Source: Candidatus Yanofskybacteria bacterium (GTDB taxonomy: Bacteria > Patescibacteriota > Minisyncoccia > 2-02-FULL-40-12 > GWA2-44-9). Taken from it: a stretch of DNA of 55,825 nucleotides. The notes beneath the pieces were generated by a model, which saw only the letters and a list, made by a program, of their open reading frames with translations, was not told where the DNA came from and searched no databases. Shown here piece by piece: positions 8,008 through 53,560 of this stretch. Position 1 is the stretch's first letter. Every line of letters starts with the position of its first letter. The DNA lies in the NCBI GenBank assembly GCA_016185505.1, contig JACPNL010000010.1:1-55825 (forward strand), read 5' to 3'. Position numbers and translations under genes: made by a program.

Positions 8008-8868
8008 TCATTCTTCATATACCTTCTCGTTCGCCGAGAGCATTAGATCCAGATTATGCAGCAACTCTTCAAATTCATTGTCATCGGCGAAATTTGGATT
8101 TGACCTTATCTTGTCTCTGACTAGTTTTATCGCCTCTTTGTGGCCCTTTTTACCCCTTCGTCTGAAGGCATCGTATTTGTCCAGTATGATTATGAGTTTT
8201 TCGGCTCTGTCAAAAAACACGTTGTCTCCGAAATATTTGGTGAACCTGCCGTCTTTGTCTACTATTTCTTCCGGATTTATACCTTCCAGCATATGATGAG
8301 TTGCCGCAGCGGCGACTGCTTCCGGCGGCACACCGTCACCGCTGATTATTTCAAGCGTCCATTTCGGATGAAGATTATAGAATTCTCGCATTGATATCTC
8401 TCCGTCTATTCCCATTTCTTTCAGCATTGCCAATCTGTCAGTTGCGTCTTCCGCGAAATTATCGTTGATGAATTGCTCCAGCGTTACTTTTGTGGGATCT
8501 ATAATGCCTTCTATCTCGTAAATATCCAGCATGAGTTTCTCCTGTTCCGATGTGGCATTCCGAGGACCGGTCTTACCAATATCCGTGAACATCGTGCCTA
8601 TCAAAACAGTTCTCTGCTCTGTGTCGGTAAATTTTTCATCAGGTAAATTCTTTTCATAATATCTGAACAGTGCCCGAGCTACGTGAACAGACCGCTCCTC
8701 GTCCTTGAACGTTTCTGTTCTGTCATTCAGAAGAAGAAGTTTTCTGACAATATTCGGATTCATTTTCTCCACATCAAGGCCGAGCTCTTCAAAAAGTTCC
8801 CTCATGTGGTCTCGTTCGGCCTCAAATCCAGTTTGTGACGTTGTCATATGTTCTTTGATCATCTTCAT
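8008..8868 (-). CDS. HD-domain-like protein (degenerate HD)
   Basis: FTDIGK, HPKW, ATHH, LDKYDA pattern of HD/HD-GYP folds. Confidence 0.65.
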   Translation of the reverse strand: MKMIKEHMTTSQTGFEAERDHMRELFEELGLDVEKMNPNIVRKLLLLNDRTETFKDEERSVHVARALFRYYEKNLPDEKFTDTEQRTVLIGTMFTDIGKTGPRNATSEQEKLMLDIYEIEGIIDPTKVTLEQFINDNFAEDATDRLAMLKEMGIDGEISMREFYNLHPKWTLEIISGDGVPPEAVAAAATHHMLEGINPEEIVDKDGRFTKYFGDNVFFDRAEKLIIILDKYDAFRRRGKKGHKEAIKLVRDKIRSNPNFADDNEFEELLHNLDLMLSANEKVYEE

Positions 8869-9257: not shown

Positions 9258-9438
9258 TACATCATAAACGGCTTCGGCCTCGAAACACCCGCAAGGGTGT
9301 TTCAGACTTTTAGGGCTTAAAGAGCTTTTACCGCCTTATCCAGTTTATTGAATTGGTCTTCGGGCAGAGTGGCTATTTTATCTAATCCATCATCTGATTT
9401 TCTTGCGTCCCCCTTTGTGACGAATTCGGCCTATAATT

Positions 9439-9477
9439 TCGGGCCGCCCAGAGTCGAACTGGGTCTAACTGGTCCCA
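9439..9477 (-). pseudogene. orphan 3' half of tRNA-Pro(TGG)
   Basis: 39 bp matching 9712-9750 with one mismatch, beginning at the anticodon. Confidence 0.85.
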
Positions 9478-9504
9478 CCCTGAAGTAGAATTTTGCGAAT
9501 CTTG

Positions 9505-9907
9505 TCGGACTGCCCGGATTCGAACCGGGACTAACCTACAACTTTGACCTCTTTCCGTCGGTCAAGTCGCAGGCCCGCCTCATGGCTGAAAATCGCCGAT
9601 TGCGATTTTCAGCATCGCTCCGGCACTTGAATCGTAAAGAAAACATAAAGCAGTTTATGTTTTCTTTACGATTCAAGCATCCCAACCTATGGTAGAATTT
9701 GGCCTAATATGTCGGGCCGCCCAGAATCGAACTGGGTCTAACTGGTCCCAAACCAGTCGTACCACCATCATACGCCGGCCCGATTAAGAGCCAAATTCTA
9801 CCATAGGTCAAGAACGTCTCGCCTGCCCCGCACCAACCCCGCCCCCTTTTTGAATGGCGGTCAGCGGATAAGGTTGGTGCGGGGTGCTACCGTTACACTA
9901 CAGTCCG
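9505..9907 (-). tRNA. split/interrupted tRNA-Pro-like gene (5' half 9907-9884, 3' half 9535-9505)
   Basis: CGGACTG-TA-GTGTAACGGTAGCAC ... TAGTCCCGGTTCGAATCCGGG-CAGTCCG-A. Perfect 7-bp acceptor stem with Pro identity (C1-G72, A73). About 350-nt insert in the anticodon arm. Anticodon not determinable. Confidence 0.75.
9712..9782 (-). tRNA. tRNA-Pro(TGG), nested inside the split tRNA
   Basis: CGGGCCG...ACTGG-TTTGGGA-CCAGT...CCCAGTTCGATTCTGGG-CGGCCCG-A. Confidence 0.93.
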
Positions 9908-9944
9908 GTCTTAACGCAAAATTCACTACGAAACTTAATTTTTG

Positions 9945-10016
9945 TCTCCTCGCGAGGAATCGAACCTCGATTCGCGGCTTAGAAGGCCGCTGTTTTATCC
10001 GTTAAACTACGAGGAG
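9945..10016 (-). tRNA. tRNA-Arg(TCT)
   Basis: CTCCTCG...GCGGC-CTTCTAA-GCCGC...CGAGGTTCGATTCCTCG-CGAGGAG-A. Confidence 0.95.
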
Positions 10017-10336
10017 GTTGATTTTTTGCCTAAATTTAAAAACTGATTATAACTTTTACGTCTGTGACAATTGGCACATCGTATCTTGCACTTTTTAATT
10101 TCTAAGAGTATAGATCTCCAGGAATTATGTCCCGATAACATTTTTGCAATCGGCCTTCTTTTCCGACTAGGATTTATATGATCAAAATCTAGAACTCTAG
10201 GATCTTTTTCCCCACAATCAACACATTTTTTATTTGATAAAAAAGCTGCCATTTGCTCTCTTATCCTAATTCTGTATCTCTTTTGTGCTTTATATAATTG
10301 TTCCCTGTATTTGTATGGCATTTTTGGGTTATACAC
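10007..10336 (-). CDS. HNH endonuclease-like protein
   Basis: CVDCG..LDFDH..KC..RCANCH. The stop codon lies inside the 5' end of tRNA-Arg. Confidence 0.85.
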   Translation of the reverse strand: MYNPKMPYKYREQLYKAQKRYRIRIREQMAAFLSNKKCVDCGEKDPRVLDFDHINPSRKRRPIAKMLSGHNSWRSILLEIKKCKIRCANCHRRKSYNQFLNLGKKSTSS

Positions 10337-51676: not shown

Positions 51677-53560
51677 ATGTCATATAAAAAACTCTCCATA
51701 TTAGTAATATTAGTTGCGCTGGTTTTGTCCATAACAAGCTTGTGGGACGACTCTTTCATCGTTGATGAGGTACCTCATGTCGGAGCCGGATATTCATATA
51801 TTACAAAAGGCGATATGCGGTTAAATCCCGAACACCCACCTCTGGCAAAAGATATAGCCGGAGCAGCTTTATCTTTTCTGGCTATAGATCAAACGGTATT
51901 TTCAACACAATATTGGGTTACTGATATAAATGGACAATGGAATTTCGGAAGAATTTTGATATATAACTCATCAAATGACGTTAATGCTATCACGAGAACC
52001 GCTAAAACGACGATGCTCATATTTTTCGTATTATCGGCTATCCTGATATACCGGTGGACGCGAGAACGATATGGAGATAGGGCGGCCTTCATCGCAACTT
52101 TGTTGTTTTCTTTCTCGCCCACGGTTCTGGCCCACTCGCGTTTTGTCACCACCGATATGCCGGCGCTGTTCGGAGTGCTTCTCGGTACTTACTTTTTTAT
52201 CAAATATTTACAGAAGCCGTCTCGAAGAACATTCTGGCTCGCGGTTCTGGCATTCGGCGTTGCCCAACTAACCAAATTTTCCGTTGTGCTTCTCGCGCCT
52301 CTATTCATATTGATGGTAATCGCGTGGTGCATAGCAAATTCATTATCTTTCAGAAAGTCGGCTGTTTTAGCCACTCGCTCACTGGTGTTGATGACGACGG
52401 GAATCATTCTTGTTGTCTGGCCGGTTTACGCTCTCCATACGATGAATTATCCGCCGGAGAAACAAAGCGCCGACACGGAATTTCATCTTGGTTCTTACGG
52501 CAACCGTTTATTTGCTGATCCCGTTGTATGGGCGTCAGACAAACCAGTCATAAGACCACTCGCCTATTATGCCACCGGAATTCTTATGGTTAATCAGAGA
52601 GCCATAGGCGGCAATAACACATTCTTTCTCGGCGAAGTAAGAAACTATGCCTGGAAACATTATTTTCCCGTCGTGTATGGGATAAAGGAACCAATTGCGT
52701 TTTGGGGATTGGTGGTAATCGTACTTTTGGCTTTGAGCCTGAAGGTTAAAAATTGCCCCGCACCAAACTTTTCCGCTGACCCCGCAGGAAGTTTTCCCGC
52801 TGACCGCCAATCAGATAGAGGGCGGACTTCCAGCGGGGCAGGCCGCCATTCAGAAAAGAGGCGGGTTTGGTACGGGGTTAGTTTTTGTTTCCAATCGCTT
52901 CGCTCTTGGACAAAAACTAACTTCGTTGAGTTCTCAATGCTGTTGTGGCTCGCGATATATTGGTATTTAAGTATTCGTGCCAATTTGAACATCGGGGTTA
53001 GGCACCTACTGCCCACTTACGGGTTTGTATTTATATTACTGGCTGGCCAGCTAGAGCGTATTACGTATTACGTATTACGTATTAAGAGGAAAATAGTCCT
53101 TACTACTTACTGCTTACTACTTACTGCTTTGCTTGGTTGGTATATCGTAGATGTCGTCCGAGTACACCCCTACTATTTAACTTATTTCAATCAACTGGCG
53201 GGCGGACCGGCGGGTGGCCACCGATACGCCGTTGATTCTAACTTGGACTGGGGACAGGACTTAAAGCGGTTAGCAGACTGGGTTGAAAAACGAGGGATAA
53301 ATAAAATTCACTTGGATTATTTTGGTTGGGCTGACCAAGGTTATTATTTAAAAGACAAACTTGTATGGATAAACGCAGGAACATATAAAGACGCTCGTGA
53401 CTTTCTCGCTCAAAATCCTAATGGTGGGCATATCGCCGTATCGGCTTCATTCTACACGGGTTCACGAGGCGACCCGGTCAACAACTACATCTGGCTGGAC
53501 GCGTATCGTCCAATAGCAACTATCGGGAACTCTATATTTGTGTGGAAAATTAGACCTTGA
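51677..53560 (+). CDS. GT39/ArnT-like membrane glycosyltransferase
   Basis: DEVPH, NPEHPPL, AHSRFVTTD, DSNLDWGQDL. The upstream ORF extension is repeat DNA. Confidence 0.9.
   Translation: MSYKKLSILVILVALVLSITSLWDDSFIVDEVPHVGAGYSYITKGDMRLNPEHPPLAKDIAGAALSFLAIDQTVFSTQYWVTDINGQWNFGRILIYNSSNDVNAITRTAKTTMLIFFVLSAILIYRWTRERYGDRAAFIATLLFSFSPTVLAHSRFVTTDMPALFGVLLGTYFFIKYLQKPSRRTFWLAVLAFGVAQLTKFSVVLLAPLFILMVIAWCIANSLSFRKSAVLATRSLVLMTTGIILVVWPVYALHTMNYPPEKQSADTEFHLGSYGNRLFADPVVWASDKPVIRPLAYYATGILMVNQRAIGGNNTFFLGEVRNYAWKHYFPVVYGIKEPIAFWGLVVIVLLALSLKVKNCPAPNFSADPAGSFPADRQSDRGRTSSGAGRHSEKRRVWYGVSFCFQSLRSWTKTNFVEFSMLLWLAIYWYLSIRANLNIGVRHLLPTYGFVFILLAGQLERITYYVLRIKRKIVLTTYCLLLTALLGWYIVDVVRVHPYYLTYFNQLAGGPAGGHRYAVDSNLDWGQDLKRLADWVEKRGINKIHLDYFGWADQGYYLKDKLVWINAGTYKDARDFLAQNPNGGHIAVSASFYTGSRGDPVNNYIWLDAYRPIATIGNSIFVWKIRP
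52756..52877. repeat. nested palindromic elements in frame in the glycosyltransferase
   Basis: The outer ccccgcacc...ggtacgggg element contains a 63-bp sister element (52780-52842). The outer element matches 9822-9884 (reverse strand). Confidence 0.85.

Follow-up and report, generated by a model that had tools for sequence, protein, structure and literature searches.

How does a bacterial cell come to carry one tRNA gene inside another of the same anticodon, and which of the two serves it? This question is raised by a locus on the minus strand of a 55,825-nucleotide (nt) contig of a Candidatus Yanofskybacteria bacterium (the window; contig C8 of the source genome, G000), in which an intact tRNA-Pro(TGG) gene lies between the two halves of a second tRNA-Pro. 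The source organism is a bacterium of the Candidate Phyla Radiation (CPR), and its assembly (681 kb, 32 contigs) is 95% complete. The stretch is contained in 16 sequencing runs, all of them DNA runs from groundwater metagenomes. Contigs of four other runs (X2, X3, X4, and X5) were compared with the window, and the family was surveyed in 62 genomes; all genomes named here are coded G000 onward. We consider it fairly probable that a resident type-B tRNA-Pro(UGG) gene has been broken by three small insertions, and that an intact type-A tRNA-Pro(UGG) carried in the middle one does its work.

The broken type-B gene consists of a 24-nt 5' part (9884-9907), comprising the 5' strand of the acceptor stem and the D arm, and a 30-nt 3' part (9505-9534), comprising the variable loop, the T arm, the 3' strand of the acceptor stem, and the discriminator. 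The earlier note had described two such halves, set apart yet sharing a perfect acceptor stem, and this was confirmed: positions 9907-9901 and 9512-9506 pair perfectly over 7 base pairs (bp), and 349 nt separate the halves 9907-9884 and 9534-9505. The insert is fully accounted for by its pieces (63 + 8 + 128 + 5 + 145 nt). In minus-strand order, these are a 63-nt copy of a dispersed palindromic repeat ("P-element") at tRNA position 25/26 (9821-9883), 8 nt retained from the B gene (9813-9820; position 26, the 5' strand of the anticodon stem, U32, and U33), a 128-nt cassette (9685-9812), 5 further nt retained from the B anticodon loop (9680-9684; TGG and positions 37 and 38), and a 145-nt module, designated M, that stands where the B anticodon stem has lost 4 nt (9535-9679). 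Neither a protein-coding gene nor an integrase gene was found in the insert in the list of open reading frames.

The cassette is built of 4 nt, a helix arm (9808-9790), a 7-nt spacer, the type-A tRNA-Pro(TGG) (9782-9712), an 8-nt spacer, and the second helix arm (9703-9685). ARAGORN called the inner gene as tRNA-Pro(TGG) at 9711-9782 on the minus strand, and Rfam agreed (RF00005, 47.0 bits, E 7e-9, against a gathering score of 29), so that the intact inner tRNA previously recognized from the letters stands. The perfect 19-bp inverted repeat reported around it was likewise recovered by the repeat search (9685-9703/9790-9808, 19 nt, 100% complementary). ARAGORN listed 36 tRNAs in the assembly, including Pro(CGG), Pro(GGG), and one Pro(TGG), which is the inner type-A gene; because it is the only copy, it is taken as the working Pro(UGG) tRNA. 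A gap in the set of proline anticodons had been suggested as something to look for, and none is missing. The longest perfect inverted repeat in 9300-10100 was 24 nt, compared with a maximum of 13 nt in 60 shuffled sequences. RNA folding of 9500-9912 (minus strand) gave -217 kcal/mol (z = -13.4), and none of 100 shuffles was as stable; the predicted fold shows the outer acceptor stem, the 19-bp helix, and the inner cloverleaf.

The type-B gene is itself bracketed by an inverted repeat, the left arm of which (16 nt, 9915-9930) and the right arm of which (9485-9497) were both found by repeat search. The outer repeat claimed by the earlier note is perfect over 10 nt (9488-9497/9915-9924) and extends to approximately 13 bp by reading on, with a 2-nt bulge. 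Downstream lies a displaced 3' fragment of an older type-A tRNA-Pro (9440-9477, with its 3' flank to 9422), which begins in the anticodon loop and forms a direct repeat 91% identical to 9695-9750. Upstream, a tRNA-Arg(TCT) gene (9944-10016, minus strand; ARAGORN, and Rfam tRNA 66.9 bits) is probably in the same transcription unit as the locus.

The arrangement of the locus is real, and every feature listed in the earlier note was recovered no more than a few bases from its given coordinates. Contigs of X2, X3, and X4 tile the filled form with 0 differences, and single contigs bridge 9747-9913 and 9505-9740; no single contig of the other runs bridges 9740-9747, inside the inner tRNA. A second joint, 9782/9946, was also seen: in other community members of higher abundance, contigs run from a tRNA-Arg to a type-A tRNA-Pro with only 5 nt between them, and such tight Arg-Pro tRNA pairs thus exist in relatives.

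An uninterrupted form of the locus was found in two other groundwater samples. In X4 (depth 4.6) and X5 (depth 5.1), a joint leads from 9534 to 9884, skipping the 349 nt and placing 17 other letters between the halves. The reverse complement of these 17 letters supplies position 26, both strands of the anticodon stem, and a loop with the anticodon TGG; its first 8 letters are the 8 nt retained at 9813-9820, and letters 9 to 13 are the 5 nt retained at 9680-9684. The empty form is therefore an ordinary type-B tRNA-Pro(TGG) with exactly the outer halves of the window, and the outer anticodon, which had been thought beyond reconstruction, is TGG. Comparison of the two forms places the cassette cleanly between U33 and U34, with no target-site duplication and no bases doubled around the insertion point, and shows that 4 nt of the anticodon stem were lost and that the palindromic repeat is missing from the empty allele. 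The left arm of the outer inverted repeat is present in the empty allele (X4 contig, 9884-9930). The X5 empty-allele contig differs from 9376-9534 at 4 positions, covers the right arm, and includes the downstream A fragment. Both the empty and the filled forms are present in X4; the insertion is a presence/absence polymorphism in one groundwater habitat.

Relatives provide the same picture of the outer gene. The orthologous locus, whose inspection had been proposed, holds an intact B gene in G001 (same genus), upstream of the ortholog of the window's open reading frame 8008-8868. The B-type D arm of the window is shared with the intact B genes of G001 and G015, and the outer 3' half is 97% identical to the 3' ends of plain intact type-B tRNA-Pro(TGG) genes in a sister family. 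Because B has repeat arms of its own and is followed by an A fragment starting in the anticodon loop, the locus reads as a series in which an A remnant was followed by B, and then by A again.

The nesting is not confined to the window. G030, which belongs to another genus, carries the same three insertions in the same places on a 306-kb contig. Its helix arms are also 19 nt and paired, have no sequence in common with those of G000, and have adjoining flanks that are identical; the same 5 anticodon-loop nt are retained after the helix. The outer acceptor stem of G030 differs from that of G000 by two compensatory pair changes, and its outer T arm is truncated. The earlier note had held that a lack of tRNAs flanked by inverted repeats at other loci would refute the cassette model; G000 itself has a second case. 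On contig C25 (28480-28810, minus strand), a tRNA-Val(CAC) enclosed in a 15-bp helix occupies the anticodon loop of a tRNA-Val(CAC) of a second type. This outer Val gene has M in its variable loop and keeps all four of its helices. The second-type tRNA-Val(CAC) is intact in G071, G073, G015, and G036, where it was found by DNA search; a 24-mer of the outer Val 5' half gave no match in 5 genomes. Among the 36 tRNAs of G000, a strong flanking inverted repeat was found only at the two nested ones (19 and 15 nt, compared with one AT-rich 11-mer elsewhere).

In a sister family (f4; G048 and G045), the order is reversed. A type-B tRNA-Pro(TGG) in a 13-bp helix lies inside a type-A gene at position 37/38 and is followed by a small hairpin (L034, G048:C19 ~1165-1377; L035, G045:C2 ~352-560); L035 has an additional short repeat of the tRNA 3' end downstream. 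The ortholog of this locus in a genus mate, G039, has an intact A gene, the same hairpin, and a decayed A fragment. In all cases, Pro and Val, the nested tRNA and the outer gene share their anticodon. The outer shells are variously decayed elsewhere: in addition to the truncated T arm of G030, the 3' half is gone in G034 and the 5' half in G065 and G001.

The three further hairpins listed in the earlier note are present, but together they make up one structured module, M, which recurs after many tRNA genes and transfer-messenger RNA (tmRNA) genes. M is built from one hairpin, a stretch with complementarity to both T loop and T stem, a conserved core that two short helices close beneath a hairpin of free sequence, and a third helix; its end is a same-sense copy of the last ~20 nt of the adjacent tRNA. 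In the window, these parts are H1 (9677-9626), the conserved core (9625-9613), H2 (9613-9585), a second conserved stretch (9584-9573), and helix P3 (9573-9535), and the repeat search returned inverted repeats of 24 nt (9626-9649/9654-9677) and 12 nt (9585-9596/9602-9613). When the structure was scored across copies, 89% of cells were paired, compared with 37-41% with slid partners; double changes numbered 107 compared with 17-29, and none of 500 shuffles reached the observed score. Many G-U pairs occur on the tRNA-sense strand. M is a new, multi-copy, covarying family of structured RNA-like modules. Against Rfam 15, only tRNAs matched in the window region (E<=10) and at 7 other M loci (E<=1).

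A covariance model (R1) detected M in 46 of the 62 family genomes, with ~240 matches and up to 19 copies per genome. An exact 13-mer scan of the order had given approximately 10 of 33 matches inside open reading frames by chance, and the covariance model was used instead. G000 has five copies, C25:28494-28620(-), C14:2830-2954(+), C2:21-196(-), C32:8178-8345(-), and the window copy at 9511-9637(-), which scored 93 bits; genus mates have 5, 1, 1, and 2. ARAGORN called a tRNA just upstream of M at 32 of 40 further sampled loci, and at 27 of these 32 the M tail was identical to the 3' end of that tRNA at no fewer than 15 of 20 positions. No flanking repeat of 10 nt or more was found at the 32 loci, and no gene for a recombinase or other enzyme was found beside M at 63 inspected loci. 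Taken as an element, M is 130-200 nt long and has no gene. Plain forms, in which an unbroken B or A gene is followed by M, were also found, and most M copies are of plain form, with no outer 5' strand. Many copies lie at contig ends, and the repeat probably breaks assemblies.

Outside the family survey, a collection of genome contigs scanned with the M core and a loose second motif gave at least 6 true copies after filtering, most of the 120 matches listed being due to chance; the M-bearing contigs among the matches listed were titled Candidatus Yanofskybacteria or Patescibacteria. A scan of viral contigs with a 15-mer of the M core gave no true M among the 120 matches listed after filtering. 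Three readings were set aside. A guide RNA of the TnpB or IS110 type has no PF07282 or PF02371 match to go with it in G000, and the intact upstream tRNA would also be a target. M is not a tmRNA: G000 has a normal tmRNA gene, and the M tails carry many different acceptor sequences. A promoter at the conserved left junction was weighed by eye and dropped.

Several M copies merit separate mention. The tmRNA gene of G000 (C32:8427-8787, minus strand; Rfam 105 bits) was missed by ARAGORN, and M lies 82 nt downstream of it with a tail that mimics the tmRNA 3' end. At C14:2700-2960(+), the tail of the M copy has no cognate tRNA in the assembly, and the preceding 100 nt have no recognizable fold and no ARAGORN or Rfam call; ARAGORN called no tRNA when M was cut out in silico. 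The M copy at G030:C11 has no cognate tRNA or larger island that could be found within its genus. At C2:1-430(-), a tRNA-Ser(GCT) is immediately followed by the 3' two-thirds of another long-arm tRNA, a hairpin, and M, the tail of which matches the partial long-arm tRNA; this resembles a replacement side by side rather than nested.

The 63-bp palindromic element noticed earlier is likewise present, but it is not part of a single insert; it is a dispersed repeat with other copies. The palindrome is ~63-68 nt long; its inner loop is conserved, and its stem covaries between copies (in the window, 13-nt arms at 9826-9838/9872-9884). Copies in G000 lie at 9821-9883 and 52756-52843 of the window and at C6:2959-3023, C17:7582-7641, and C19:18414-18479. 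At 52756-52843, one copy is inserted in another; many copies occur in relatives. Metagenome depth spikes over the palindrome (9838-9878). Repeats of the repetitive extragenic palindromic type with their associated tyrosine transposases (REP/RAYT), or palindromic repeats resembling miniature inverted-repeat transposable elements (MITEs), are short and dispersed. The palindrome is like them in being short, dispersed, and self-inserting, with a covarying stem, and in the presence of Y1 transposase-like genes in the genome. G000 has two such genes (C29:23604-23840 and C3:20044-20301), which might move the palindrome. Its conserved internal loop could mark a small RNA.

On the reading that the B gene was broken and its work taken over, the outer gene would be a dead shell, as the decay of shells in other lineages suggests. 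The array and tRNA-Arg would be transcribed as one precursor, in which the 19-bp helix would clamp the ends of the inner tRNA so that it folds apart from the look-alike shell and does not mispair with it. The inner tRNA would then be released by RNase P and 3' processing, and RNase III, which is encoded in G000, may cut the helix. The insertions themselves could have arisen by recombination that targets tRNA and tmRNA genes and leaves a regenerated gene and a displaced fragment, with the enzyme acting in trans. Once finished, the block may spread between strains as an allele by recombining within the flanking tRNA halves; it could in this way enter any B-type gene, which would explain why host and cargo share an anticodon. 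Cells presumably tolerate the block because the tRNA it brings has the same anticodon. The preferred reading of the compensatory acceptor changes between G000 and G030 is that each lineage's own live B gene was invaded, in which case they are no evidence for a functional shell.

A number of points weigh against this account. That the outer gene is dead, and how the locus is transcribed and processed, is deduced from DNA, and the empty-allele contigs are short, of low depth, and derived from metagenomes. No recombinase is linked to the insert; G000 has a tyrosine recombinase, a serine recombinase, the two Y1 genes, and a reverse transcriptase, none of which is adjacent, and the sole PF00589 match in G000 is on contig C22. 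The flanking tRNA halves, of 24 and 30 nt, are short for homologous recombination. The cassette occupies nearly the same anticodon-loop position (33/34) in two independent loci, with f4 at 37/38, and this near-identity argues for a site-specific step rather than chance. Finally, the arms differ completely between G000 and G030 yet pair, and the outer acceptor stem has its two compensatory pairs; either of these could reflect selection beyond the inner tRNA.

The point about position leads to the explanation that competes best, although we regard it as doubtful: an active composite mobile element, in which a dedicated site-specific enzyme encoded elsewhere moves the cassette as one unit, by itself or together with M. 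The enzyme could belong to the tyrosine or Xer-type recombinases, it could be a Y1/HUH enzyme working on folded single strands, or it could be integron-like in reading structure and not sequence; it would recognize the anticodon or T loops of tRNAs, and the helix arms would be its substrate, not an RNA clamp. The clean insertion at U33/U34 without loss of target, the Val cassette on C25 at nearly the same position, arms that keep their pairing but not their sequence, the recombinase and Y1 genes of G000, and the varying M copy number among genus mates (5, 1, 1, and 2) all speak for such an element. So do the borders of M, which lie in the T loop and after tRNA and tmRNA genes, as integrase targets do in the available part of the Islander paper (PMC4383910). 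However, none of the 63 inspected M loci has an enzyme gene beside it, the cassette has no flanking target duplication, no excised or circular form was seen in the contigs of the other runs, and the G-U pairs that M has on its tRNA-sense strand are in keeping with an RNA. On C25, moreover, retained tRNA sequence parts the cassette from M, and this points to separate insertions. The proposal of the earlier note that mobile cassettes bounded by inverted repeats replace a tRNA of their own isotype holds in part. The empty allele and the recurrence of nesting in Pro and Val bear it out, but three modules rather than one unit are involved, and the arms are paired but not conserved in sequence, unlike repeats of the transposase type. 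Compared with the terminal inverted repeats of transposons and MITEs, the arms differ in that their sequence is not conserved between G000 and G030 and in that no target-site duplication accompanies them.

A bolder idea, which we offer as speculation and think rather unlikely, is that M is the RNA or folded single-strand part of an as yet undescribed system for integration into the tRNA and tmRNA genes of CPR bacteria, reading its target through the segment complementary to the T arm and the tail identical to the tRNA. The helix-clamped tRNA cassettes would be its cargo, and the whole would amount to a nearly protein-free "tRNA gene parasite" that kills the gene of a given anticodon and leaves the cell dependent on the copy brought. 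If so, it would drive tRNA genes to turn over, with A placed in B, B in A, and Val in Val.

Less probable again is that the shell is alive, the outer halves and M together forming a functional tRNA-like RNA with an acceptor stem, a D arm, a T arm, and P3 in place of the anticodon arm, from which the nested tRNA is processed out. Such an RNA might, for example, offer RNase P or the CCA-adding enzyme a handle, or work as a decoy or regulator for factors that bind tRNA. The window does have a perfect 7-bp outer acceptor stem, closed in the predicted fold, and an intact T arm; C25 keeps all four outer helices; M is under structural selection, and its tails are nearly identical to their own tRNA even between genera. 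Nevertheless, the outer halves do not differ from those of the live empty allele, and their good condition may therefore show no more than that the event is recent; the shells decay in G030, G034, G065, and G001; and most M copies lack the outer 5' strand altogether.

We judge it very improbable that the insert is a true tRNA intron, that is, that the 349 nt are removed from the RNA by self-splicing or by a protein enzyme, the inner tRNA being freed from the intron and a second functional tRNA being made. The insert sits in the anticodon region, and the lineage does have group I introns in tRNA genes (tRNA-Phe in G000; tRNA-Met in G003 and G072). Like group I introns in the anticodon loops of bacterial tRNAs, it is a long structured insert in that loop; unlike them, it has no core, its exons cannot rejoin into a tRNA, and it is a mosaic of three independent repeats, each found alone elsewhere. 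No group I or II intron matched in Rfam at E<=10 within 9350-10050, in agreement with the earlier statement that group I core motifs are absent, whereas RF00028 as a positive control matched 5 places in G000. EndA (PF01974) had no match in the 95%-complete G000, the control matching in 4 archaea, and RtcB (PF01139) had none in G000. ARAGORN with long-intron settings, a check suggested at the outset, did not call the outer tRNA. Since the anticodon stem lacks 4 nt and position 25/26 is interrupted by a 63-nt repeat, no splice rebuilds the outer tRNA, and the multi-hairpin tRNA intron put forward previously is abandoned.

The control search gave several observations of its own. One of the RF00028 matches is a 293-nt group I intron in tRNA-Phe(GAA) (C7:13549-13861, minus strand; Rfam 68 bits), a gene that is not in the plain ARAGORN list; further matches in G000, on C17 and C24, fall within or next to rRNA genes. 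At L355 (G003:C1, 48 bits) and L325 (G072:C1, 25 bits), a tRNA-Met gene contains a group I intron and is followed by M, and such introns may explain the absence of a tRNA-Met call in G000. At L349 (G014:C9), the anticodon loop of another tRNA is interrupted by ~215 nt.

That the locus is an assembly artefact, its tRNA halves, palindrome, and M misjoined, is scarcely credible: every module is a repeat, and metagenome contigs do break at 9740-9747 and at module borders, just as many M copies lie at contig ends, but the identical contigs of three further runs bridge all module borders except inside the inner tRNA, the two 19-nt arms, unique in the genome, lie on different contigs and are perfectly complementary, and the 306-kb contig of G030 has the same order.

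Preferred integration positions within tRNA genes, in the anticodon loop or the T loop, are said to have been set out by Williams in 2002. Islands placed in tRNA and tmRNA genes by tyrosine integrases have, as far as the available part of the Islander paper goes, a regenerated gene and a displaced 3' fragment at their ends (PMC4383910). M is like these islands in targeting tRNA and tmRNA genes, and both M and the A fragment (9477-9440) show a regenerated gene with a displaced fragment. It is unlike the islands as presented there in being 130-200 nt long, without an integrase, and a structured RNA-like module; the nested cassette, for its part, carries a whole tRNA rather than a 3' part and does not regenerate the outer gene. 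The layout of M, with a regenerated gene, a short element, and a displaced fragment starting in the T loop, is the one by which elements integrating into tRNA and tmRNA genes are recognized.

The nearest known system is the tRNA-dependent lysogeny of actinobacteriophages, in which, according to the available part of the report, a host tRNA gene is disrupted and not restored by the phage, which supplies a substitute of that isotype (Guerrero-Bustamante & Hatfull, mBio 2024, PMC10865867). The two are alike in that an essential tRNA gene is broken and not rebuilt and a replacement is supplied, here Pro(TGG) and Val(CAC). They differ in that the element of the system outlined in that part is a temperate phage, equipped with a tyrosine integrase of its own and a short common core, whereas the present insert is 349 nt long and has no protein gene; in addition, the replacement here is nested in the anticodon loop of its victim between helix arms, and a new structured module is associated with it. 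Disrupted tRNA genes of archaea and algae, which are split, permuted, or contain several introns, have bulge-helix-bulge motifs and halves that are rejoined by EndA and a ligase, in the available part of a review (PMC3978253). As in those genes, the halves at the present locus are apart in the DNA and a helix joins both sides; unlike what is described there, neither EndA nor RtcB was found, and the halves lack part of the anticodon arm. No description of a bacterial tRNA gene nested in another was found by full-text searches, subscription journals lying outside their coverage.

The locus is a natural knock-out and replacement of an essential tRNA gene within a few hundred bases, by an insert without a protein gene, and its filled and empty alleles are both still present in one habitat. 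The tRNA genes of very small genomes can turn over by nested replacement. The analysis has also brought to light a widespread covarying module, linked to the 3' ends of tRNA and tmRNA genes, for which Rfam has no family; if M is part of a targeting mechanism, it would represent a new kind of compact site-specific insertion system. For annotation, nested loci will be miscounted, either as fragments or as missed genes.

Two further observations were made in G000. A reverse transcriptase gene lies at C4:3980-4588(-) (RVT_1, 78 bits) in an open frame of 341 amino acids. At C7:11085-11157, ARAGORN called a tRNA-Ile with the anticodon TAT, which is unusual for bacteria.

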